Part shown: piece by piece, positions 1,883 to 56,930 of the stretch
Numbering within the stretch: the first letter of the stretch is position 1
How the letters are laid out: every line of letters starts with the position of its first letter
Source: Candidatus Poribacteria bacterium
GTDB lineage: Bacteria > Poribacteria > WGA-4E > PCPOR2b
DNA: 64,000 nt
Direction: 5' to 3'
Assembly (NCBI GenBank): GCA_965215015.1
Contig: OZ244042.1
Coordinates: 1,760,001 to 1,824,000 of the forward strand
The notes under the pieces: generated by a model
What the model saw: only the letters and a program-made list of their open reading frames with translations
Databases searched by the model: none
Told to the model about the DNA's origin: nothing
Position numbers and translations under genes: made by a program

Positions 1883-4800
1883 TTAAAAACGCGGCAGCTC
1901 ATGCATCACACGGCGTGTATTGTATTCCAGTTGATAGCGAAGGTGCTCTGGGGTCTCCGGGTACTTTTCCGCGTCGGGATACGGATAAGCGGACATGCCG
2001 TGAAAAGGGAGCGGCGCAACCGTCTGCGAAGACAGCGTATTGATGTCACCGTCCTTGTCCCAACCGTCGCTGTAGAGGATAAAATCTCGCTCCCAACCCG
2101 CTTCCAGCGGCGGCAATCCGTCCGCATCAAACTCGACAGTCATCTCGTCCCCGGCGTTCAAAATGACATACATATCGTCGATCTTCTCTAGCAAGGATGT
2201 TACTTCTCCGTACCGGGTGTAATTGCCTGCCAGATCCCGCCACTGTTTTGGCGTTGCGACTTCGTTATAATCAAATAGATGCGGCGCGTGGGGGGTTGGG
2301 CGATACATCTTGGAAAAGCCGCGGTAATGGAGCACTGCGCGATTCGGAAGCAGCCTCGTAATGCGGGTCGGCACCTCTTCCCCACCGATCTCAAAAAACG
2401 CTGAATCCCAGTAAATCTGCATATTGGTCGCAATTTTTACCCCCCGATCTTCCGAAAGGAATTTGCCTGTCAGATCGATGCAGATAGTCTTGTTTTTGCC
2501 CGCGGGTATGCCAATAGGATCGATGACTGTCCGCCACCTCCCATCCTCATCACGCACCTGTAGGTAAGGAAAACCCGGGTTAATTGACGGATTCTGTGAG
2601 AGTGCAAGGTTGATACTGGTATCTGTTGGGAAGATCCAACCGTTGAGGAATAAGGTAAGTTCCAAATCATCAGGCACGTCCCCCAAATCAAGAACGATGA
2701 AGTGGGGGGCAACGACGCCTTGGAACGCTCCCGGTTCGTGTTCAATCGCATAGCGATAATCGACGGCTTTGAGTGCGTCGGAGACATCGGATCCATGGTG
2801 GTCGAGTGCCGTATATGGGTGGTGAACCTCTTTCGCTGTGTAGATCTTGAACGCTGAAAGCGGCAGTGGGGTATATTTCTCATCAACAAAAATTTGTGTG
2901 CCTACGGGATGGTCTACGGCAAGCAGCTTGACCAGATCAAAATAGGCGGTCTCCCACAGTTCCTCCGTAATTTGAAGCGAATAGACACCTGCTTTTGGCT
3001 TCATGAGGTCGCCGGGAATTTTGACGTAATCCGCGGTTTCAGCAGCCGCGAGAAATCCCATCGGCGTGACCATCCCAAGCGGGCTGCGCCACAGAAGGTC
3101 TGTTACGAACTGATAACCTTGACCGTCATAAACGTAGAGGAATGGACACGATCCCTTCAACACCTGCTTTTCGAGGATGCGTTGGTTTGATTGAGGGGTG
3201 ACAACATTCTGTGGAACACCGTTTGTCCAGACAACCCGCAGCACATCCGCCTGTTTCTCTTTTCCTAAACCGAAATGTGTTATTGGGGCGGTAACATATT
3301 TCATCTGGTAGAGCTCACCAGCCTTGAGCTCTACTTTTGCACCGATGCCATCAATGTTATTCTTGTTGTTGCCTGCGTTGACACCCTCTAACTTCACTTG
3401 CAGCCAACTATTTTGGTCCCCACCTTCGTTCCGCAGCGCAATCACCTGACCATCGGCGTCAACCAGAAAAAGGTCAAGGTCTCCATCGTTGTCATAATCT
3501 CCAACGGTGCCGTCGTCTCCACTCCGGATCGTATCAGGTAGTGCATTTGAAGCATCGGTGAAGTGACCTGTCCCATCGTTCCGAAACAGAAAAATGCCAC
3601 GTCCATCCGTCGCTAGCGGCGCGCCGATAAGCCATAAATCCAAAAAACCGTCGTTGTCATAATCGAGGAAATGGGCACCTGAGCTGTGCACACCCTTTGC
3701 AGCAGCAATCGCTTCCTCATACGAACGCGTATCCGGAGCATAAGTGCCATCGCCGCGGTTTCGATAGAGCTGATGAGGTGTTTCACCATCGGTGGCTATA
3801 AACAGGTCAATATCGCCATCGTTGTCATAGTCACCGACTGCGACCGCTGTGAAGGAGGGGTTTTGGGGCACCCCTATTTCAGCGTTCAATGCCTGCATCT
3901 TTCCCTGACGTAGGTTTGTGCAGAGCGTACAGCCCCTCCTATCGTTTACGATTAATAGATCAATATCGCCATCATCGTCAAAATCACCGAGTGCTGCGTC
4001 CCGTGCGCCGGGGCGTTCCAGTGGGAGGAAAGTCTGATCGCTAACATCGGTGAAGACGCCATCGCCATTATTGCGATACATTTCTACCTGGGCCCCCGTT
4101 GTGAACAAATCTAGATCGCCATCATGGTCATAATCGAGGAACAAGTTTACTACTCTGCCCCGTTGCTTTAAACCCTGATTTGATTGGATACCAGTCAAGT
4201 CGATCATCTCGGTGAAGTTGCCCGTTCCATCATTGTGAAGGAAGGCACTTCCCTCGGCTCCTGACATATAGAGATCTGGGTCACCATCCTTATCGATATC
4301 CGCAAAAGCGGCCGCGTCTCCGCGACGTCCAACTATGGCGGCGGGGATAAAGTTTCCATCTTCATTCCGAAAAAGATTAGGTTCAGTGGCTAAAAAAGCG
4401 GGGAGGGTATACAAGTCAAGATCGCCGTCGTTATCGTAATCTGTCAGCAGAATGTTGGACCGTTTCCCGTTCAGGTTGCCAAGCCCAATCTCTTGAGTCA
4501 CATCAACAAAGTTGGCTCCGATTGGTGGCGTCTGCTTCGCTTTGGTTCGTGCTCTAAACCCAGTACTAAATCCTTCGATCGGGTGCCCCAAGATGTTCGT
4601 CACCAACTCCCCAATCCCTTGTTGATAGCGGGGGCTTCGCTTTTGAACGTTCTCAAAAATCTGAATATATCGGGCTGCCCCTTTAATATCGCCTTGATCT
4701 ATCAAAAGCAGTCCCTGTTTTAGGTACTTGAGGAATTCTTCAGCCGCATCCCACAGCAGGGCGTTCAACTCCATGCAGATCCGCTTCGCTTCCTCAACCT

Positions 4801-5430: not shown

Positions 5431-6468
5431 CTATTTGCCTTCCAGTTCGGCACGGACAATACGCGTCCCAGCGACGAGATTTTGCAGCTTCAAACAGCAC
5501 ACCCAGCGTGGAAGTTGAAAGAAGCCACAGTCAGGTGAAAGACTCAATCGTTCGGGAGGACAGTGCTGTAACACTTGGCGGATGCGGTTGGCGACTTCTT
5601 CGGGGGGCTCATTCCAAAAACTCTTGATGTCCACAACACCCGCCATAAAGTCGAACTGTCCCTCAAATCTGCTGTAGATGTCGTGTTCAACCATTTCGCG
5701 ATTGGCGAATTCCATCGACAGACAATTGACATTCATCTCCAGCAACGCAGGGAACATCCAGTCGTACCGACGCTTACCACGGGGACGGGACCCCAAATTG
5801 CCGAAGCAGATGTGCAGATTCTTGTCCACCGAGACTCCATCAAGAGCGCGGTTGAGCAGTGCTACCCAATCTTCGAGTTTGCCCGGGATGATTCCGAAGC
5901 TCGGTTCGTCAAGTTGGACTTCGGTACACCCTTCTGCCTCAAGGGCTTTCAATTCCTGGTTGATAACCTCAGCAAATTCCCAGCCAAGTTCGACGCGATC
6001 TTTGTACGGATCGTTTTCCCGGATTTGGATGTGCATGGTCAGCGTCAGGGGACCTGGACAACACGCCTTAATCCGTTGCCCTTCGCCGGCATTTGCCTTC
6101 AGAAACCGAAATTCATCTAAGATACCTAAACCTTCCGGGACACGCACCTGATCCTCAATATAGTAGCGGGGGACACTATCGTACGCATACAGTCCAGTTT
6201 GGCGGAGTACCGGCCGTTCACGTAATCCTTCCATGCGTCCGTAGAAATTTTGCACGAAGTACCAGCGGCGCATTTCACCGTCCGTGATGATGTCGATCCC
6301 AGCTTCCTTCTGATCCCAGATTGCTAACCGGACAGCGTCATCATAAACCTCTCTTTCGTCGGTGGGTCCATACTCGCCGCGTTTTTGTGCCTCCATGGCT
6401 GTCCAAAACCAGCCCGGCAGCGCATGGGAACCAATCACCGTAGTAGGAAGCAATTGTTCGTATGGCAT
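5431..6468 (-). CDS. Cobalamin-independent methionine synthase-like protein (MetE C-terminal catalytic domain only)
   Basis: TTVIGS, ITDGEMRR, VQLDEP, Zn ligands LHICFGN and PDCG. Start at ATG 6468 after AGAGGAG. Confidence 0.8.
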   Translation of the reverse strand: MPYEQLLPTTVIGSHALPGWFWTAMEAQKRGEYGPTDEREVYDDAVRLAIWDQKEAGIDIITDGEMRRWYFVQNFYGRMEGLRERPVLRQTGLYAYDSVPRYYIEDQVRVPEGLGILDEFRFLKANAGEGQRIKACCPGPLTLTMHIQIRENDPYKDRVELGWEFAEVINQELKALEAEGCTEVQLDEPSFGIIPGKLEDWVALLNRALDGVSVDKNLHICFGNLGSRPRGKRRYDWMFPALLEMNVNCLSMEFANREMVEHDIYSRFEGQFDFMAGVVDIKSFWNEPPEEVANRIRQVLQHCPPERLSLSPDCGFFQLPRWVCCLKLQNLVAGTRIVRAELEGK

Positions 6469-29375: not shown

Positions 29376-29441
29376 GCGATTTATCGTCTATCGTAACGCG
29401 GGTTGAATGACGTTACGACACACTCAAGTGCGTAACGCCTA
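29376..29441. mobile_element. Partial family A MITE (one end only)
   Basis: Aligns with 41746-41811 (...ttgaatg..ttacgaca.actcaagtgc.taac.ccta). Confidence 0.6.
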
Positions 29442-29571
29442 AAGAAGTTAAACAATGATTGACACCGGTAGTTACTATGTAGTAGGTGCAATCGGATTAA
29501 AAGCAAACAAATTCAAGAGGTTCTCGTCGCAATTTTGAAAGAGCGAGCATTACACAGCTAGGAGAAAATTT

Positions 29572-31709: not shown

Positions 31710-32678
31710 ATGCGTACTCTAACGATATACCTCACCTGTTGTCTCTGGTTGGGCACGATGAGTGCTCATGGCAAAATTGTGTTTCAATCGGGTCGGGATG
31801 GGAATCTTGAAATCTACGTCATGAATTCAGACGGAACGGGTCAAACCCGTCTGACACATAACGAGGCGCGCGATCTCCAAGCTGCCTGGTCTCCTAATGG
31901 GAGACAGATTGCGTTCACACGAACGTGGGATGATGAGGACTTGGAGATTTATGTGATGGATGCCGATGGTGGCAACCAGCGCAATCTGACCAACCATCCC
32001 GCCCTCGATAGCTCTGCCGATTGGTCTCCGGATGGGTCCCAGATTGCGTTTACGAGCGATCGGGTTCGTAATGGGTTGAGCATTTTCGTGATGGACGCCG
32101 ATGGTGCCAACGTCAGACAACTGACTGAGGGGCCGTTTGACGTCGTGCCGAAGTGGTCTCCGGATGGGAAACAGATTGCCTTTGAAGCGGTGTTGGGGTT
32201 GGGGCACGGTCGGCAAATCTATATGATGAATGCCGATGGCACCAACATCTGGCAGGTGTCAGAACCGGTTCCCAAGGCGGGGATGTTTTTGAGGGGGTGG
32301 TCGCCGGATGGCAAACGGATTTTGTATACAGCGGCTATTGATTACTTAGCCCAAAGTGCGTTTTTAGTCATTGCGACGTTGCATCCGAGAAGGCATAAGG
32401 CAATCAAGCATGAGCGGGTGCCGCTGCCAAAAAAAATGCACCTCGAGACATCTGCATGGGGTGCCGATGGGAAGTCGGTGCTCGCCACTCTCAGAAGGGG
32501 TTCTAGGGAAGCGGGTGGTGCCTGGAATATCTACCGGTTTCGTCTCTCAACGGGTGAACTCATCCAGTTGACCGATAATCCGACGACGGATATAGCTCCT
32601 CACGAATGGAATCCTCGGCTGTCGATTTCGCCACAGGGGTTAGCTCCCAAACGTTGGGTGGAGATTAAATCGAACTGA
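31710..32678 (+). CDS. Secreted TolB-like PD40 beta-propeller protein, copy 1
   Basis: Signal peptide, KIVFQSGRDGNLEIYVM, WSPDG repeats, C-terminal SPQGLAPKRWVEIK. Confidence 0.88.
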   Translation: MRTLTIYLTCCLWLGTMSAHGKIVFQSGRDGNLEIYVMNSDGTGQTRLTHNEARDLQAAWSPNGRQIAFTRTWDDEDLEIYVMDADGGNQRNLTNHPALDSSADWSPDGSQIAFTSDRVRNGLSIFVMDADGANVRQLTEGPFDVVPKWSPDGKQIAFEAVLGLGHGRQIYMMNADGTNIWQVSEPVPKAGMFLRGWSPDGKRILYTAAIDYLAQSAFLVIATLHPRRHKAIKHERVPLPKKMHLETSAWGADGKSVLATLRRGSREAGGAWNIYRFRLSTGELIQLTDNPTTDIAPHEWNPRLSISPQGLAPKRWVEIKSN

Positions 32679-33250: not shown

Positions 33251-34219
33251 ATGCGTACTCTAACGATATACCTCACCTGTTGTCTCTGGTTGGGCACGAT
33301 GAGTGCTCATGGCAAAATTGTGTTTCAATCCGGTCGGGATGGAAATCTTGAAATCTATGTCATGAATTCAGACGGAACGGGTCAAACCCGTCTGACACAT
33401 AACGAGGCACGCGATTTTGAAGCTGCCTGGTCTCCTAATGGTAGACAGATTGCGTTCACACGAACGTGGGATGATGAGGACTTGGAGATTTATGTGATGG
33501 ATGCCGATGGTGGCAACCAGCGCAATCTGACCAACCATCCCGCCCTCGATGGCTCTGCCGATTGGTCTCCGGATGGATCGCAGATTGCGTTTACGAGTGA
33601 GCGGGTTCGTAATGGGTTGAGGATTTTCGTGATGGACGCCGATGGTGCCAACATCAGACAACTGACCGAGGGACCATTTGACGTCGTACCGAAGTGGTCT
33701 CCGGATGGGAAACGGATTGCGTTTGAATCGATGTTGGAGTTGGGGCACGGTCGGCAAATCTATATGATGAATGCCGATGGCACCAACATCTGGCAGGTGT
33801 CAGAACCGGTTCCCAAGGCGGGGATGTTTTTGAGGGGGTGGTCGCCGGATGGCAAACGGATTTTGTATACAGCGGCTATTGATTACTTAGCCCAAAGTGC
33901 GTTTTTGGTCATTGCGACGTTGCATCCGAGAAGGCATAAGGCAATCAAGCATGAGCGGGTGCCGCTGCCAAAAAAAATGCACCTCGAGACATCTGCATGG
34001 GGTGCCGATGGGAAGTCGGTGCTCGCCACTCTCAGAAGGGGTCCTAGGGAAGCGGGTGGTGCCTGGAATATCTACCGGTTTCGTCTCTCAACGGGTGAAC
34101 TCATCCAGTTGACCGATAATCCGACGACGGATATAGCTCCTCACGAATGGAATCCTCGTCTGTCGATTTCGCCACAGGGGTTAGCTCCCAAGCGTTGGGT
34201 GGAGATTAAATCGAACTGA
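33251..34219 (+). CDS. Secreted TolB-like PD40 protein, copy 2
   Basis: 322 aa, near-identical to copy 1. Confidence 0.88.
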   Translation: MRTLTIYLTCCLWLGTMSAHGKIVFQSGRDGNLEIYVMNSDGTGQTRLTHNEARDFEAAWSPNGRQIAFTRTWDDEDLEIYVMDADGGNQRNLTNHPALDGSADWSPDGSQIAFTSERVRNGLRIFVMDADGANIRQLTEGPFDVVPKWSPDGKRIAFESMLELGHGRQIYMMNADGTNIWQVSEPVPKAGMFLRGWSPDGKRILYTAAIDYLAQSAFLVIATLHPRRHKAIKHERVPLPKKMHLETSAWGADGKSVLATLRRGPREAGGAWNIYRFRLSTGELIQLTDNPTTDIAPHEWNPRLSISPQGLAPKRWVEIKSN

Positions 34220-34813: not shown

Positions 34814-35782
34814 ATGCGTACTCTAACGATATACCTCACCTGTTGTCTCTGGTTGGGCACGATGAGTGCTCATGGCAAAATTGTGTTTCAATCCGGTCGG
34901 GATGGGAATCTTGAAATCTACGTCATGAATTCAGACGGAACGGGTCAAACCCGTCTGACACATAACGAGGCCCGCGATCTCCAAGCTGCCTGGTCTCCTA
35001 ATGGGAGACAGATTGCGTTCACACGAATGTGGGATGATGAGGACTTGGAGATTTATGTGATGGATGCCGATGGTGGCAACCAGCGCAATCTGACCAACCA
35101 TCCCGCCCTCGATGGCTCTGCCGATTGGTCTCCGGATGGGTCGCAGATTGCGTTTACGAGCGAGCGGGTTCGTAATGGGTTGAGCATTTTCGTGATGGAC
35201 GCCGATGGTGCCAACGTCAGACAACTGACTGAGGGACCGTTTGACGTCGTGCCGAAGTGGTCTCCGGATGGGAAACGGATTGCGTTTGAATCGATGTTGG
35301 AGTTGGGGCACGGTCGGCAAATCTATATGATGAATGCTGATGGCACCAACATCTGGCAGGTGTCAGAACCGATTCCCAAGGCGGGGATGTTTTTGATGGG
35401 GTGGTCGCCGGATGGTAAACAGATTCTGTATACAGCGGCTGTTGATTACTTAGTCCAAAGTTCGTTTTTAGTCATTGCGACGTTGCATCCGAGAAGGCAT
35501 GAGGCGGTCAAGCATGAGCGGGTGCCGCTGCCAAAAAAAATGCACCTCAACACGGCTGCGTGGGGTGCCGATGGGAAGTCGGTGCTCGCGACTCTCAGAA
35601 GGGGTCCTAGGGAAGCGGGTGGTGCCTGGAATATCTACCGTTTCCGTCTCTCAACGGGTGAACTCATCCAGTTGACCGATAATCCGACGACGGATATAGC
35701 CCCTCATGAATGGAATCCTCGGCTGTCGGTTTCGCCACAGGGGTTGGCTCCCAAGCGTTGGGTGGAGATTAAATCGAACTGA
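34814..35782 (+). CDS. Secreted TolB-like PD40 protein, copy 3
   Basis: 322 aa, near-identical to copies 1 and 2. Confidence 0.88.
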   Translation: MRTLTIYLTCCLWLGTMSAHGKIVFQSGRDGNLEIYVMNSDGTGQTRLTHNEARDLQAAWSPNGRQIAFTRMWDDEDLEIYVMDADGGNQRNLTNHPALDGSADWSPDGSQIAFTSERVRNGLSIFVMDADGANVRQLTEGPFDVVPKWSPDGKRIAFESMLELGHGRQIYMMNADGTNIWQVSEPIPKAGMFLMGWSPDGKQILYTAAVDYLVQSSFLVIATLHPRRHEAVKHERVPLPKKMHLNTAAWGADGKSVLATLRRGPREAGGAWNIYRFRLSTGELIQLTDNPTTDIAPHEWNPRLSVSPQGLAPKRWVEIKSN

Positions 35783-37101: not shown

Positions 37102-38082
37102 ATGAATAACAATAGACCGACGCGGATTGCCGATGTAATTGGCGGACACATTCATCCGGCAATCTGTGTCACGCAAAGCGGAACGCTGCTTGGCGTCTAC
37201 AATAAAGAGGGCGGTGGTGGGAAAGAACTCCTATTAAGCCGATCGGACGATGGAGGCGGGACGTGGAGCCGTCCAATCCCCATCCCTGTCATCCGTAACT
37301 GCTCAATCTATCCCGGATCGCTGACAACGTTGAGCGATGGACGGGTTCTGCTCAATTGGTCCTGCTATCACAAAGCGGGGAAGAAACTCTGGCGGACACC
37401 TCAATTTTCAATCAGCCGCGACGAGGGCGAAACGTGGTCTGAACCGAGAGATTATCCTATCACCGACCTCACCAACTATACCTGTATGCGTCATGCACAG
37501 ATTGAATGGTCAACCGATACGTGGGTGTGTCCATTCTATGACCGCACCGTGCTGTACGATATGAGGGCAGATCAGATTAAGGCTTTCGGGGATGGACGCA
37601 ATCACGGCATGGTGCCGATTGTCCGTACCACTAAGGGAACGCTAATCAGCGGTGCCCCGCAGGCGGTTGCGCCCGTGCCTGTAGGTGTGCCGGGGAATAT
37701 GGTCAGAGGGCTTCGTTCGACAGATAACGGTAACACATGGGATGCGTTGAACGTCTTTCCGCACTTTGGTGTTGCTGGATATGATCTAGCTGCGCTGACA
37801 AACGGTTGGATCGTCTTAACCTACATCGTCTACGGCGTTGGCGTCGATGGGGAGTTTAGCTATGAGTTAGTTGTATCGCGTGATGATGGGGTAACGTGGA
37901 ATTTCGATCGCGCAATTGAAGTCCACAATCCGGGTAGGCCCATCGTGGGGCGGGGTTGGCCGCGCACGGTGCAGCTTGACGCAGAGACCCTTGGGACCCT
38001 CTTTTATGATCTTGACCAAGACCAACCTGGGGGGCCGGGGGTGTTCTTTGTTCGGACACCACTGACGCAATTGGGCGGTTGA
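37102..38082 (+). CDS. BNR/Asp-box sialidase-like protein
   Basis: Four Asp boxes: SDDGGGTW, SRDEGETW, STDNGNTW, SRDDGVTW. Confidence 0.8.
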   Translation: MNNNRPTRIADVIGGHIHPAICVTQSGTLLGVYNKEGGGGKELLLSRSDDGGGTWSRPIPIPVIRNCSIYPGSLTTLSDGRVLLNWSCYHKAGKKLWRTPQFSISRDEGETWSEPRDYPITDLTNYTCMRHAQIEWSTDTWVCPFYDRTVLYDMRADQIKAFGDGRNHGMVPIVRTTKGTLISGAPQAVAPVPVGVPGNMVRGLRSTDNGNTWDALNVFPHFGVAGYDLAALTNGWIVLTYIVYGVGVDGEFSYELVVSRDDGVTWNFDRAIEVHNPGRPIVGRGWPRTVQLDAETLGTLFYDLDQDQPGGPGVFFVRTPLTQLGG

Positions 38083-38393
38083 GACAAAATACCTGAGGGT
38101 GCTCATAAATAGACCCTCGGTTGGGTTGAACAGGTAATCCCTAATCTCTGCCCACATCAACCAATGTTCGGCGTGTCGCGCAACATATTGGGTATTTTGG
38201 GGACAAGAATCCGTGATTCAGACAATTTATTATCAGCACTTCTCAAAGACCTACGCTCATGTCCAAAGAAAGTGCAAAACGCAAAGAACGTGAAACGTGA
38301 AAAACCATTTGTTCATGGGGGCATTGGTTCGTTAATGCGGGCGGGCTAGGAAGGCCGGATTCTATTGCACGATTGCTTAACATCAACGAAATT

Positions 38394-38438
38394 AAAAAGC
38401 CGTAGAGACACAATATACCGTGCCCTTACGGCTTTCTT
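38394..38438 (-). terminator. Probable terminator after leuA
   Basis: Stem AAAAGCCGTA...TACGGCTTTC, with an A-tract on the + strand giving a U-tract on the - strand. Confidence 0.55.
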
Positions 38439-38455
38439 GTTATGGATTTCTCATT

Positions 38456-39991
38456 TTATTCTTCATAGCGCAGATGGACAATCTTGTTGAGGACATCAAT
38501 GTAGGCTTTCGCGCTCGCTTCAATAATGTCCGTGCTAGCACCATGCCCGATAATAACATTCCCGTTGTCCTGCACCCGGATTGTCACCTCACCGATCGCA
38601 TCCTTTCCCTCGGTAACAGACCGGATGTTGTAGTCTGCGAGCAGGAGGGGAATCTTGGCGATCCGGTCAATTGCCTTATAGGCTGCATCAACAGGACCAT
38701 CGCCAGTGGAGGCTTCCTCAATAACACCTGCTTCGGTACGGACGCCTACCGTCGTTGTTGGGGAGATTTTCGTCCCGCTGACCAGCTGAATGTACTCCAA
38801 TTGGAAGGTTTCAGGAATCGAGCGGACCTCGTCTCTCATGATGGCCTCAAGGTCGGCGTCGTGAACCTCTTTCTTCTTATCGGCGACGTTGAGGAATCGT
38901 TCATAGATTTTTTCCAGCTGTTCCTGTGTCACCTCATAACCGAGCGCATTCAGACGGTGCCTGAGGGCGTTGCGCCCGGATCGCGGACTGAGGATAATCT
39001 GACTCTCCTGCCAACCGACATCTGCCGGATCGATAATCTCGAAAGTATTTCGTTGCTTGATAACACCATCTTGATGAATGCCAGAACTGTGTGCAAAAGC
39101 ATTCTCCCCAACGATAGCTTTGTTCGGTTGAACCGATATTCCCATCGTCCGACTGACACGACGGCTAATCGGAACAATCTCTTTCGTGTTGATGTCCGTA
39201 TAGTAGTCGCTGAAATAGTCTCGACGGGTTCGGATTGCCATCACAATCTCTTCGAGCGATGTGTTACCAGCGCGTTCACCGAGCCCGTTGATGGTGCATT
39301 CGACCTGCCTTGCCCCATTTTCAATCGCTGCGAGACTGTTCGCAACAGCGAGTCCGAGGTCATTATGGCAGTGGACACTGATGATTGCTTGATCGATGTT
39401 CGGGACATTCGCTTTGATGTCCGCGATGAGTTCCCCAAATTCAGCTGGCACCGTCCAGCCTACCGTTTCGGGGATGTTCACGATCGTTGCGCCCGCCGCG
39501 ATCGTCGCCTCAACCACTTCATAAAGATAGCTTGGCTCCGTACGTCCGGCGTCCATCGGCGAAAATTCGATAACTGCGCTGGGGTGTCCGGCAGATAGCC
39601 CCTTCGCGTAGCTGACGGCGTCGAGTGCCATCTGCAGCGTCTCTTCGGGAGAGGTGCGGGTGATACGTTCTCGGTGAATGGGTGAGGTCCCGACAAACGT
39701 GTGAATACGAGGTTTTTGGGCATCTTTAATCGCTCCCCACGCCGCGGTGATATCCTTCTCGACCACGCGTGAAAGCGCGCAAATTTCTGGACCCTCAACT
39801 TCATTGGAGATGCGCGTCACTGCATCAAAGTCACCGGGTGATGAGACAGGGAACCCAGCTTCGATAATATCGACTTGCAGCTTTGCGAGGTGTTTCGCTA
39901 TTTCCAGCTTTTCCTCAAGATTCAGCGCGGCACCGGGCGTTTGCTCAGCATCCCGCAGGGTGGTATCAAAAATGTAAACTTTCTCAGACAC
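38456..39991 (-). CDS. leuA: 2-isopropylmalate synthase
   Basis: [46 protein letters not shown]-terminal regulatory domain GDGPVDA; GTG start after AAGGAG. Confidence 0.93.
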
Positions 39992-40019
39992 TGTGTGATT
40001 CTCCTTTTTAGGGGTGCGC

Positions 40020-41084
40020 CTACGCTAGGCTTTTATGTGCAGTCCTAAGTAATGAAGCCGTTGTTTCCAGATCAATGCAACTGTCGGTGACGGAAACACC
40101 GTATTCAAGCGTGGATCGATCAAACCCGGTTAAGTCAGAAGGTATTTGCTGACTTCCAGCGTTAATATTTGATTCTAGCATGATTCCTACTATCCCATCA
40201 TTTCCGTCACGAACCTGTTTTAATATTTCCTCAAAAACAGCGGCTTGTTTGCTGTAATCTTTCTCTGAATTTCCGTGACTACAATCTATCACAACATTTG
40301 GAGGCAGCTCCGCTTCCGTCAGCATCCCTTGAACATCTTGAACACTTTGTGAGTCATAATTTGTGCCCGTATTGCTCCCCCTTATTACAATATGAGTATA
40401 TGGATTACCCGTTGTTCGTACAACAGACGGAGCCCCATAGCCATCAATTCCCAGAAAAGAGTGTTCGCCGTTTGCTGATAGAATCGCGTTGATCGCAACC
40501 GAGATATCGCCCTGAGTGCTGTTTTTGAAGCCAACCGGCATCGAAAGACCCGAAGCTAGCTGTCTGTGTTGGGGCGACTCAGTCGTCCGCGCCCCAATTG
40601 CCGCCCAAGAGACCAGATCCGAATTATATTGAGGCGTGAAGGTTTCAAGATATTCAGTGGCACATGGCAGTCCGATTTCAAGACTATCCATTAATATCCG
40701 TCTTGAGATATATAAGCCATCCTTGATATCTCCTGCCCCATTTAGATGTGGGTCATAGATTAAGCCTTTCCAACCGAGACTGGTGCGGGGTTTTTCAAAA
40801 TAAGACCTGACTATAATAACTAAGCGATCTGAAACAGCATCCGAAACCTCTTTTAATCTTACCGCATAGTCATGGGCGACCTCTGCATCATGGATAGAAC
40901 AAGGGCCAACTATGACGAATTTTCGGGAATCGGTGCCATCCAAGATATTTCTGACGCTTGTTCTGCCGTATTGGACCGTCTGTGTCATCGCATCTGTTCT
41001 TGGGAGATCGATTAGCAACTGTCTTGGACTCATTAAGGTTTGATAGTCTTTGACATTTCTGTCAATCGTACCGTTGGTCTGCAT
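40020..41084 (-). CDS. aroF: 3-deoxy-7-phosphoheptulonate (DAHP) synthase, class I-alpha (AroF/G/H type)
   Basis: GPCSIHD, YFEKPRTSLGWKG, AIGARTTES, PVGFKN, DCSHGNS, YGVSVTDSC. ATG 41084 after GGAGG. Isoenzyme identity cannot be determined from sequence alone. Confidence 0.92.
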   Translation of the reverse strand: MQTNGTIDRNVKDYQTLMSPRQLLIDLPRTDAMTQTVQYGRTSVRNILDGTDSRKFVIVGPCSIHDAEVAHDYAVRLKEVSDAVSDRLVIIVRSYFEKPRTSLGWKGLIYDPHLNGAGDIKDGLYISRRILMDSLEIGLPCATEYLETFTPQYNSDLVSWAAIGARTTESPQHRQLASGLSMPVGFKNSTQGDISVAINAILSANGEHSFLGIDGYGAPSVVRTTGNPYTHIVIRGSNTGTNYDSQSVQDVQGMLTEAELPPNVVIDCSHGNSEKDYSKQAAVFEEILKQVRDGNDGIVGIMLESNINAGSQQIPSDLTGFDRSTLEYGVSVTDSCIDLETTASLLRTAHKSLA

Positions 41085-41106
41085 TATTTTGCTGCCTCCT
41101 ATAGAC

Positions 41107-41149
41107 AAAAAAAACGCCCACCATCGAACCTGTTTTCGATGATAGGCGT
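41107..41149 (-). terminator. Attenuator terminator upstream of the DAHP synthase gene
   Basis: Minus strand ACGCCTATCATCGAA-aacagg-TTCGATGGTGGGCGT followed by a T-tract; 15-bp stem with 2 G-U pairs. Confidence 0.88.
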
Positions 41150-41177
41150 GAATGAAAAACTAAATGTGGGATAATCT

Positions 41178-41303
41178 CTACATCTCCGATGCGAGGTCTA
41201 CCCGCCCATCATCGCAGCACAAGTACAACAAAAAGAGATAGAGATAAAGGAAGTACAGCGTTGTTTGACGTGCGATGTGGGTATGTGGGTAGAAATTTTT
41301 CAT
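41178..41303 (-). CDS. Leu/Tyr/Phe-rich attenuator leader peptide (41 aa)
   Basis: MKNFYPHTHIARQTT-LYFLYLYLFLLYL-CCDDGRVDLASEM*; lies between the promoter and the terminator; too short for the ORF track. Confidence 0.8.
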   Translation of the reverse strand: MKNFYPHTHIARQTTLYFLYLYLFLLYLCCDDGRVDLASEM

Positions 41304-41325
41304 TAGCCTCTTGTGGTTCCTATGT

Positions 41326-41354
41326 ATTCTATACCTAACCTATACGTTCATCAA
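41326..41354 (-). promoter_or_regulatory. Sigma70-type promoter of the leader-aroF-leuA transcript
   Basis: TTGATG (41354-41349), 17-bp spacer, TAGAAT (41331-41326). Confidence 0.7.
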
Positions 41355-41519
41355 CTGCTAGAAATGTCTGTAAGTTTGGTGAAAAGACACTTAATTTTAA
41401 CAAACCCCTTGACAAGATGTCAAGGCAATTTTCGTTGACAACCCTTTTTCTGGGTGTTATAGTTATATTTCGGAGCGTCAATAAAACAGATTTAATCGGG
41501 ATTTGAGGATTAAAGAATC

Positions 41520-41811
41520 TAGGACTTACGCCGTTGAACCCTCGAAGCCAATACCCGAAAAGGGCGCGCAATGTTCATCGTTGGTTCAAAACACCCAGAC
41601 TCTAGCGCAACGTTCCGGGCGGATTGAGCCAGGATTATTGCTCCATAGTATCTGGTATTCTCTTGCGCTCTAGTCATGGTATCCTCACCCCCCTCTGGCC
41701 CCCGCAAGCAGGGGGACAGCATAAGGAGTATGTCTACTACTGGCGACGATTTATGGTCTATCGTGATGCGGCTTGAATGGCATTACGACAAACTCAAGTG
41801 CATAACTCCTA
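41520..41811. mobile_element. Family A MITE, opposite orientation to 1538-1881
   Basis: TAGGACTTACGC...GCATAACTCCTA; flanking direct repeat AAGAATC. Confidence 0.75.
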
Positions 41812-41853
41812 AGAATCAAGAGAATCCGCCAATCCTGACAAAGGAGTAGTCGT

Positions 41854-43266
41854 TTGAACGCTGAAGAAAAGTGTCTATTTATTAACAGTCAGATTCCCAA
41901 AGGGGGGCTCTTCACCGGCGAAAAGAAGACCGTCCACCCCGATAGCAATGTAACGTGGCGAATCTCGCCGGAGCCATTTTGGATTCTCCAAGAACACTTA
42001 GATTGGCTTGAGGAACTGGGAACACACCTATTGCGGTTCTACAAAGCCTGTAACTTACTCTACTCGCAGAGTGTACGTGGCATTCAGCCGGATTGGGTCG
42101 CAGCGTATCTTGATCAGGGGAAGCCTGAGTCTGTGATAGAACTCGGACGGATGAATCGGTTCAAGAGCCAACTACCACAAGTTATTCGTCCCGATATCTT
42201 GCCGACTCCCGATGGTTTTATTATCACCGAATTGGATTCCGTCCCCGGCGGCATGGGATTTACCGGCAGCCTAGCGACACAATATGCCAAATTGGACTAC
42301 GACATCATTGGCGGTAGCAATGGGATGCAGCTCGCTTTTGCGGAGATGGTCAGGTCGCTAGCGAAGGTTGAACACCCAACGTTGGCAATTGTCGTCTCCG
42401 ATGAATCCGCGGATTATTGGGACGAAATGAAGTGGTTAGAATCAGCACTGCGAGGGGTAGGCTTGGCTGCCCACACCATCAAACCCCGCGACGTGATTTT
42501 TACAGAAAATGCGCTATTCCTTGAATTAGATGAAGGAAAAATCCAAATTGATGTCCTCTACCGCTTCTTTGAACTGTTTGATTTGAAAAACATTCCCAAA
42601 GCAGAGTTGATGCTCTATGGTGCCAAAAGGCGAACGGTGGTCATGACCCCGCCCCCGAAGACATACCTTGAGGAAAAGTTGCTGTTTGCCCTGTTTCATC
42701 ACCCATCCCTCCAACCTTTCTGGCAAAGAGAACTTGGGAAGAAAACCTACCAGTTCCTACCGAACATTCTCCCACAGACATGGCTGCTCGATCCGCGTGA
42801 GCTACCACCACACGCTGTCATTCCGGCACTTGAGATGGATGGACTGCCTGTCACAAACTGGAAACAAATCATTCCTGTCTCGCAACGGCAGCGTGAACTT
42901 GTCCTCAAGCCATCGGGGTTCTCCGAATTGGCATGGGGAAGTCGTGGCGTTGCAATCGGACATGACCTTCCCACCGAAGATTGGGAACACGCAGTGGAAA
43001 ACGCATTGACCCGTTTTCATCAGACACCCTATGTCCTACAAAAATTCCACAGAGCGGAACGCCTCACTATGACTTATTACGACTTTGAGCAGGGGGCAGT
43101 TCAAAGAATGCCGGGGCGAGCGATGATTCGTCCGTATTACTTCGCAATGGGTGACAAGGTGCGCCTCGCTGGGATTCAAGCGACCATCTGCCCCGAAGAC
43201 AAAAAAATCTTGCATGGGATGGTTGATTCGATTATTGTGCCGTGTGCGGTTAAAACGGATATATAG
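41854..43266 (+). CDS. ATP-grasp-type ligase (glutathionylspermidine synthase / circularly permuted ATP-grasp-like)
   Basis: IRPD...ITELDSVPGG, DVLYRFFE, LVLKPSG...WGSRGV, YVLQKF; TTG start after AAGGAG. Confidence 0.65.
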   Translation: MNAEEKCLFINSQIPKGGLFTGEKKTVHPDSNVTWRISPEPFWILQEHLDWLEELGTHLLRFYKACNLLYSQSVRGIQPDWVAAYLDQGKPESVIELGRMNRFKSQLPQVIRPDILPTPDGFIITELDSVPGGMGFTGSLATQYAKLDYDIIGGSNGMQLAFAEMVRSLAKVEHPTLAIVVSDESADYWDEMKWLESALRGVGLAAHTIKPRDVIFTENALFLELDEGKIQIDVLYRFFELFDLKNIPKAELMLYGAKRRTVVMTPPPKTYLEEKLLFALFHHPSLQPFWQRELGKKTYQFLPNILPQTWLLDPRELPPHAVIPALEMDGLPVTNWKQIIPVSQRQRELVLKPSGFSELAWGSRGVAIGHDLPTEDWEHAVENALTRFHQTPYVLQKFHRAERLTMTYYDFEQGAVQRMPGRAMIRPYYFAMGDKVRLAGIQATICPEDKKILHGMVDSIIVPCAVKTDI

Positions 43267-56639: not shown

Positions 56640-56930
56640 AACGATTCTCCGATTATATCCTTAACCGGTTAGGAGTTACGCCCTTGAGCTTGTAATAACA
56701 CCATTCAACCTGCGTCCAAAGTAGCATACTCCGTCTGCCATCCCCCACTTGCGGGGGGTGGTTCGTAGTAGCGCAATTCATTTCATAACGATTCTCCGAT
56801 TATATCCTTAACCGGTTAGGAGTTATGCCCTTGAGCTTGTAATAACACCATTCAACCCGTGTCCAAAGTAGCATACCCCGTCTGCTGTCCCCCCCGCTTG
56901 CGGGGGGTGGTTCGTAGTAGCGCAATTCAT
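56634..56930. repeat. About 147-bp tandem duplication of the M81 gene start, its upstream region and the left part of a family A MITE
   Basis: TTTCATAACGATTCTCC... begins at both 56634 and 56781; the copies differ at a few positions. Confidence 0.85.

Follow-up and report, generated by a model that had tools for sequence, protein, structure and literature searches.

A putative leader-peptide attenuator with leucine, tyrosine and phenylalanine codons precedes a DAHP synthase–leuA gene pair in Candidatus Poribacteria

We analysed a 64,000-nucleotide (nt) stretch of a Candidatus Poribacteria genome (contig OZ244042.1; hereafter the window), in which two biosynthetic genes lie in tandem on the minus strand behind a short leader. 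The first gene (41084-40020) encodes a type-I-alpha (AroF/G/H-type) 3-deoxy-D-arabino-heptulosonate 7-phosphate (DAHP) synthase of 354 residues and is referred to here as aroF; the second (39991-38456), leuA, encodes a 2-isopropylmalate synthase (IPMS) of 511 residues. Ahead of them lies an upstream open reading frame (uORF) with a long run of Leu, Tyr and Phe codons, followed by a terminator hairpin. The feature is real and has the classical anatomy of an attenuator. Our interpretation, which we hold with moderate confidence, is that it acts as a ribosome-mediated attenuator through which a shortage of Leu, of Tyr or of Phe would each raise transcription of both aroF and leuA.

The enzymes were assigned with NCBIfam models. 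The DAHP synthase scores 430 bits against TIGR00034 (cut-off 173), which places it in that family, and 461 bits against NF009395 (cut-off 343); its scores fall under the cut-offs of the AroG and AroH equivalog models. Its best solved relative is the Tyr-sensitive AroF of Escherichia coli (6agm, 349 bits), the Phe-sensitive AroG giving 322 bits. LeuA matches both TIGR00973 (699 bits, cut-off 598.7) and NF002086 (759 bits, cut-off 532) over residues 2-506, and is thereby a member of the IPMS family; its best solved relative is the IPMS of Neisseria meningitidis (3rmj). LeuA homologues that act on phenylpyruvate exist in homophenylalanine pathways, and adjacency to a DAHP synthase gene would fit a diverged homologue of this kind that elongates an aromatic 2-oxo acid, in which case the operon would serve the aromatic pathway alone. 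We consider this extremely unlikely, however, since the protein lies above the curated cut-offs of two IPMS equivalog models over its full length, C-terminal part included, its nearest solved relatives are IPMS enzymes and the Leu codons of the leader indicate Leu. Inside leuA, in intact coding sequence (38577-38770, minus strand), an Rfam model of a group II intron domain scored below its threshold (17.6 bits against a gathering score of 49, E = 0.12), and this hit was taken as chance.

The gap between the two genes is 28 nt and contains the Shine-Dalgarno (SD) sequence of leuA, which starts with GTG 9 nt after AAGGAG. Scans of the minus strand from 41114 to 38481 predicted no terminator-like site and no promoter-like site, the promoter scans being limited to sigma-70-type consensus sites. 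A weak hairpin 24 nt past the leuA stop codon (38417-38432, minus strand), with a 5-pair stem and a poor T tail, may mark the end of the operon. Since a Pfam scan of the 48 other ORFs in the window yielded no further leu or aro gene, aroF and leuA form an isolated pair. The original prediction had read the locus as a DAHP synthase gene followed 28 bp on by leuA, and both the family scores and the gap agree with it. From this arrangement the two genes appear to be co-transcribed.

The leader ORF (41303-41178, minus strand) comprises 41 codons plus a stop, with its ATG at 41303, its stop codon at 41180-41178 and an SD-like GAGG ahead of the ATG. Codons 16-28 (41258-41220) specify Leu seven times, Tyr four times and Phe twice, and nothing else; the leader has no Trp codon. 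The position and length of the ORF, the composition of the run and the lack of Trp had been pointed out in the original prediction and were recovered here. In a six-frame translation of the 64-kb window this run is unique by its length, the next longest stretch made up of Leu, Tyr and Phe alone being six residues. The tract is T-rich (22 T and 9 C among 39 nt), and none of 200,000 mononucleotide shuffles of it gave an in-frame reading composed exclusively of these three amino acids. Judging from its sequence anatomy, the uORF is presumably translated.

Four regions of the leader can form mutually exclusive pairings. Region 1 (41281-41259, codons 8-15) is, in minimum free energy (MFE) folds, the 5′ strand of a 1:2 hairpin, the anti-antiterminator, in which 22 pairs join it to 41230-41205 around a 28-nt loop. 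Codons 16-24 of the control run lie inside this loop and codons 25-28 within the upper part of the 3′ strand. Region 2 (41203-41230) contains that 3′ strand together with the overlapping antiterminator strand 41214-41203, which can pair with 41148-41137 in the terminator 5′ arm (region 3, 41149-41135) at all 12 positions in standard pairs, a single G-U included. Region 4 (41128-41114), found by the terminator scan, completes the terminator: 41149-41114 forms 15 pairs, 7 of them G-C, precedes a T-run at 41113-41107 and is the strongest terminator-like site within 37900-42000. The duplex energies are −19.6 kcal/mol for 1:2 (−15.5 for its lower core), −22.5 for 2:3 and −24.9 for 3:4. The whole leader folds at −67.6 kcal/mol, which beats 200 of 200 dinucleotide shuffles (z = −3.74). 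The antiterminator and the 15-bp terminator with its U-tract (41149-41107) are thus as first proposed, and a TGCGA...TCGCA pairing that had been suggested to sequester the antiterminator strand turns out to belong to a larger structure, the 22-pair hairpin that presents the control codons in its apical loop. In sum, the locus combines a leader ORF with a start codon and a ribosome-binding site, a cluster of 13 consecutive codons for the end products Leu, Tyr and Phe, an intrinsic terminator past the leader ORF and ahead of aroF, and an antiterminator together with an upstream pairing that excludes it, as leader-peptide attenuators do.

Equilibrium folds of the complete leader are uninformative, for a reason given below, and we therefore folded instead a transcript that stops short of region 4, while a mask of 30 nt standing for the ribosome was shifted codon by codon along the leader ORF. 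With no ribosome the probability of the 2:3 pairing was 0, region 2 being held in the 1:2 hairpin. With the ribosomal A (aminoacyl) site at codons 4-16 this probability was 0.94, and with the A site at codons 17-26 it was 0.86-0.95 when pairs spanning the ribosome, that is, between region 1 behind it and region 2 ahead of it, were forbidden. From codon 29 onwards region 2 was covered and the probability returned to 0.

A DAHP synthase scan of genome contigs gave at least 80 loci. The closest among the matches listed, L001, is a contig of a Candidatus Poribacteria metagenome-assembled genome whose DAHP synthase and LeuA are 91% and 94% identical to those of the window and whose flanking genes are the same; the third codon positions of the two genes, which serve as a gauge of neutral divergence, are 66-71% identical. 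The L001 leader ORF shares the start, frame and stop of the window ORF and differs by one 6-nt in-frame gap, its control run being one 6-nt unit shorter (6 Leu, 3 Tyr and 2 Phe). The core of the leader (41281-41203) shows 4 substitutions in 79 nt besides this indel (∼95% identity), and the leader flanks show 7 in 30, 5 in 24 and 7 in 28. Two of the substitutions fall within the control run, one in a Leu and one in a Tyr codon, and both are synonymous. Codon positions 1 and 2 of the run are unchanged even though it is mostly single-stranded in every predicted structure, which argues for selection on the codons themselves. Over the entire leader ORF we counted 5 synonymous and 7 non-synonymous codon differences, and all of the latter lie outside codons 9-31, which looks like the pattern expected where the product of the leader does not matter.

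The pairings are kept as well. Region 1 differs from its L001 counterpart by one substitution in 23 nt, at an unpaired position, and no paired position of the 1:2 hairpin has changed. All 12 pairs of 2:3 remain standard in L001, pairs being retained at the two changed positions of region 3 (41148 and 41144), and the L001 terminator has 14 pairs and a T-run, having kept every window pair except the apical one. Masked folding of the L001 leader reproduced the pattern seen with the window leader. Among the changed positions that are paired in the window MFE fold, 9 of 13 retain a standard pair; the four that lose theirs comprise the apical pair of the terminator and three positions of a doubtful outer helix. 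The window MFE fold contains two such outer helices, both uncertain, one pairing 41304-41294 with 41161-41151 and the other 41293-41287 with 41203-41197. The first would cover the leader start codon; its changes seemed compensatory on inspection, but a column-wise count breaks three positions in L001 and the L001 MFE fold differs in this part, so that this helix is retained as a possibility only.

These comparisons bear on whether the leader might work independently of uORF translation, as a structured RNA with a protein, small-molecule or tRNA ligand, or by way of a functional small hydrophobic peptide. A compact multi-helix fold with a base stem, the weak SD spacing of the uORF and the hydrophobic character of the run would all suit such a mechanism. 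Against this, Rfam covariance models, T-box included, gave no match in the leader at E ≤ 1 in a search of 10 kb and only two chance-level hits at E ≤ 10 in a search of 361 nt, and there were no matches at gathering score in L001 and nine distant leader loci; a T-box and the known leader families were rejected as candidates on these grounds. Codon positions 1 and 2 in the loop are invariant while a third position has changed, the peptide is not conserved outside the run (the seven non-synonymous differences), and the hydrophobic stretch of L001, which has lost two residues by comparison, could not span a membrane as a helix. Moreover, aromatic codons are the only feature common to the uORFs of homologous genes elsewhere. 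We judge translation-independent control very unlikely.

Transcription probably begins at a TTGACA-18-TAAAAT site with a TG before the −10 element (41423-41394, minus strand; 11 of 12 consensus matches), which is conserved in L001 (3519-3548) and would place the start near 41387; RNA begun at this position yields the same core fold. The original prediction had assigned the promoter to a TTGATG-17-TAGAAT site (41354-41326, minus strand). That site is present, but it is weak (9 of 12 matches) and not conserved, both hexamers being altered in L001 so that the scan does not detect it there, and the stronger, conserved site lies 70 nt upstream; it is probably not the main promoter. In L001 an insertion of 155 nt falls just after the −10 of this weaker site, ahead of the leader ORF. 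A plus-strand promoter-like site (41435-41463; 11 of 12 matches, with TG) stands back to back with the minus-strand site 41423-41394, and both of these divergent sites (41394-41463) are conserved in L001. The −35 element of the minus-strand site lies inside a 19-nt palindrome (41425-41407) that is not retained in L001.

The other DAHP synthase loci show which codons precede this gene elsewhere. Setting aside L001 and one locus with less than 300 nt of upstream sequence (L047), we searched the 450 nt that precede the gene in the remaining 78 for ATG-initiated uORFs with at least 5 aromatic residues among 8 consecutive ones. Such uORFs precede the gene at 16 loci (at 11 if at least 6 of 8 are demanded), as against 2 and 0 of 78 in the reverse complement and none of 67, at either threshold, in control windows 950-1400 nt upstream. 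The records bearing them are labelled Dehalococcoidia, Chloroflexi, delta-proteobacterial (Desulfobacterota-like), Polyangiaceae, Binataceae and DPANN archaea. In folds of five of these leaders (L016, L033, L042, L066 and L038) a hairpin ahead of a terminator again carries the aromatic codons in its apical loop, and its 3′ strand is complementary to the 5′ arm of that terminator, which shows that this loop geometry recurs. NCBIfam searches of the downstream same-strand ORF at 39 of 50 loci, after L001 and ten with a wide gap or a short ORF had been left out, identified aroB at five, chorismate mutase/prephenate dehydrogenase (tyrA) at three and trpG/pabA at one.

What differs between these leaders and those of the two Poribacteria is the residues that stand between the aromatic ones. 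In the 16 distant leaders none of 31 such residues is Leu (only A, C, G, H, N, P, R, S, T and V occur), whereas Leu accounts for 5 of 5 in the window and 4 of 4 in L001. A leuA gene lies near the DAHP synthase gene at 1 of 80 loci among the matches listed, that of L001, and among these matches no locus but L001 shares with the window the co-occurrence of Leu codons and leuA. This joint occurrence, which amounts to one evolutionary event, is the best reason to regard the Leu codons as control codons.

The same data allow us to weigh an attenuator that responds to Tyr and Phe only, in which Leu is a tolerated, pyrimidine-rich filler of an unstructured loop and leuA an unselected passenger. Such an arrangement seems unlikely to us, although it has points in its favour: Leu codons are U/C-rich like those of Phe and Tyr, in keeping with the 22 T and 9 C of the tract, one Tyr-Leu unit came from a 6-nt duplication, Leu-free aromatic leaders are common upstream of this enzyme family, and in theory the mixing of codons lowers the sensitivity to each amino acid, as set out in passages of PMC1183508. 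A mere filler, however, is hard to reconcile with the absence of Leu from all 31 filler positions in the 16 other leaders when it occupies every one here, or with the synonymous nature of the sole substitution in a loop Leu codon. Furthermore, wherever in the effective zone a ribosome stalled, read-through would follow, and the six to seven Leu codons could not then be silent under a shortage of Leu.

Aromatic leaders mostly followed by terminator-like hairpins occur, for example, at L016, L020, L033, L038, L042, L046, L057, L066, L067 and L076, and the mechanism thus extends beyond its known range, given that such leaders stand before DAHP synthase genes of this family in many uncultured lineages. 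At three loci labelled DPANN archaea (L002, 3889-3927; L025, ∼3706-3777; L079, ∼3795-3848) a bacterial-type DAHP synthase gene is preceded by a short uORF whose last codons, up to the stop, form a Phe/Tyr/Trp run. L079 also encodes an archaeal EF-1 alpha (598 bits, cut-off 540) and an archaeal-type DnaG (403 bits, cut-off 300), and L002 an apgM-type mutase along with a weak S3ae hit; by their gene content these contigs look truly archaeal. Leader-peptide control in archaea would be unusual.

From the anatomy of the leader, the degree to which it is conserved and the association of its Leu codons with leuA, we infer ribosome stalling, terminator read-through and an OR-gate response as follows. 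Transcription would start, most likely, at the conserved promoter 41423-41394, and the nascent leader would adopt the 1:2 hairpin. A ribosome initiating at 41303 would melt the 5′ strand of this hairpin (codons 8-15) and then reach the Leu/Tyr/Phe run. When the tRNAs for Leu, Tyr and Phe are all charged it should pass over region 2 to the stop codon at 41180-41178; region 2 would then be covered by the ribosome or recaptured by region 1, the 3:4 hairpin would form and transcription would terminate at the T-run 41113-41107. Scarcity of any one of the three would stall the ribosome with its A site within codons 16-26, as a wedge between regions 1 and 2, so that the 12-bp 2:3 pairing could form, block the terminator and allow both genes to be transcribed. 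In the model of Elf and Ehrenberg, described in passages of PMC1183508, sensitivity to an amino acid drops with the share of its codons in the control region, from which a graded response is predicted, in which Leu, with 7 of the 13 codons, would have the greatest effect and Phe, with 2, the least. Control specific to each pathway would then fall to the enzymes themselves through feedback inhibition, a property of both enzyme families that presumably extends to the proteins encoded here.

Several observations weigh against this mechanism. In the complete leader at equilibrium the terminator formed under every ribosome mask. A terminator that prevails at equilibrium is usual in attenuators, where the choice between structures precedes the existence of region 4, and hence the switch must be kinetic. 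A greater difficulty arises from the cut transcript: the ribosome-masked folding that the original prediction had proposed as a check produced the antiterminator for codons 17-26 when pairs spanning the ribosome were barred, but a 2:3 probability of ∼0 when they were allowed. The main mechanistic uncertainty of our model thus lies in the assumption that a ribosome occupying the 54-nt loop prevents regions 1 and 2 from meeting, or that a second, queued ribosome sits over region 1. The 3-nt spacing between GAGG and the leader ATG is at the short extreme for the window, 6-10 nt being typical of its genes. No word-sharing candidate for the leader peptide was found in a set of 5.8 billion predicted proteins, a null that is uninformative on conservation as ORFs this small are apparently not called in that set. 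Relative to L001 the control run of the window is in part a 6-nt tandem duplication, and among the matches listed the element is carried by two closely related genomes only, the window and L001. A conserved uORF with covarying stems had been put forward as the evidence to look for; the Leu/Tyr/Phe uORF and all three pairings are indeed kept in L001, but window and L001 show no strict compensatory double change, the changes being one-sided through G-U pairs.

The gene order of L001 is a further point on the same side. There a gene for a 253-residue methyltransferase and a 190-nt spacer part aroF from leuA by ∼1 kb, and leuA could have start signals of its own; the linkage of the two genes is conserved, the tight 28-nt junction is not. 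This distance, as well as the restriction of our promoter scans to sigma-70-type consensus sites, would accommodate separate control, with leuA expressed from its own promoter, or a transcript ending after aroF, and the attenuator governing the DAHP synthase only. We give this little credence. The 28-nt gap in the window encloses the leuA SD sequence and shows, on the minus strand, neither a promoter-like nor a terminator-like site; the aroF-leuA interval of L001 likewise has no predicted terminator, and separate control leaves the Leu codons of the leader unexplained.

Other features of the two contigs may be recorded here. The gene between aroF and leuA in L001 (5103-5864) encodes a class-I S-adenosylmethionine-dependent methyltransferase, and an in-frame upstream GTG/ATG with a strong SD sequence (5937-6056) could lengthen the L001 LeuA by ∼40 residues. 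Short repeats resembling the ends of the L001 insertion (3618-3772) recur between genes in the window (41520-41539, 41796-41812, 1538-1553, 1863-1881, 56668-56694 and 29426-29442), which suggests a family of small non-coding mobile elements, one presumed copy of ∼290 nt lying in the divergent intergenic region adjoining the attenuator. On the plus strand the window carries three tandem 322-residue paralogues with PD40 beta-propeller repeats (31710-32678, 33251-34219 and 34814-35782), at least one of which is preceded by an ORF of ∼100 residues without a Pfam match.

We propose that one leader peptide integrates the charging states of three tRNAs from two unrelated pathways and sets the transcription of both entry enzymes, and that this came about when leuA joined an ancestral, aromatic-only aroF attenuator, similar to those that many uncultured lineages carry today, Leu codons being acquired afterwards; for this fuller account, history included, the case for and against is about evenly balanced. 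If it is true, the locus would be a natural example of the codon content of an attenuator evolving together with a chimeric operon, a cross-pathway multivalent attenuator, and would indicate that simple codon turnover can rewire attenuators when operons are reshuffled. One transcript would act as a graded sensor of any of three amino acids, transcription being set coarsely while feedback on the enzymes sorts which pathway runs. It would also give an initial glimpse of how genes are regulated in the uncultured phylum Poribacteria, and supply compact sensor parts for Leu, Tyr and Phe.

Several known systems share part of this design. A leader peptide upstream of a DAHP synthase gene is known from Corynebacterium glutamicum, the primary study of this aroR leader being reportedly that of Neshat et al. 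in 2014. Passages of PMC4046766 give a predicted leader peptide with Phe-Tyr-Phe upstream of aroF, and those of the review PMC11802643 describe attenuation of transcription in response to Phe, not Tyr. Like the element described here, aroR is a short ORF that places Phe and Tyr codons before a DAHP synthase gene and would work by ribosome-mediated attenuation; it differs in that its control codons, as presented in those passages, are limited to Phe-Tyr-Phe, Leu codons being absent from the leader and leuA from the operon. The original prediction had held the whole arrangement to be undescribed. This cannot stand for a Phe/Tyr leader on a DAHP synthase gene; for the combination with Leu and leuA it agrees with our full-text literature search, which yielded neither a leader that combines aromatic with Leu codons nor an operon of aroF and leuA, its coverage of subscription journals being too thin to prove absence. 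The 16 aromatic leaders among the 78 distant loci stand before the same enzyme family, and in five of them the control codons likewise lie in an apical loop, but they contain Phe, Tyr or Trp codons only, in shorter runs and without Leu, and the partner genes are aroB or none.

Leaders that read several amino acids are themselves established. The ilvGMEDA leader has codons for Ile, Val and Leu and the thr leader for Thr and Ile, each mixture staying within one pathway family. These ilv and thr operons of E. coli and Salmonella are named in passages of PMC1183508. As is proposed here, a stall at any of several amino acids favours read-through in these systems, but theirs belong to one family and share enzymes, whereas Leu and Tyr/Phe are made by unrelated pathways, with the operon as their sole link. 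The textbook routes are IPMS for Leu and shikimate for Tyr and Phe, which sets the present element apart from one-pathway multivalent attenuators of the ilv and thr type. With leuL, and with the Leu-codon leaders that passages of PMC2659441 and PMC1262725 describe before leuA in Shewanella and Actinobacteria, it would share control of leuA by Leu codons through a terminator, an antiterminator and an anti-antiterminator; those leaders, however, have a pure Leu run directly before leuA, which here is the second gene. Cross-regulation between Leu and aromatic biosynthesis also has a precedent in the LtbR repressor of C. glutamicum, which, according to passages of PMC11802643, joins leuCD and the trp operon under one regulator and has a site upstream of aroG as well. 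LtbR is a DNA-binding protein acting on other genes, not a leader peptide. The codon content of attenuators is usually taken to mirror a single pathway; in the Poribacteria leader it would mirror a chimeric operon of Leu and aromatic biosynthesis.

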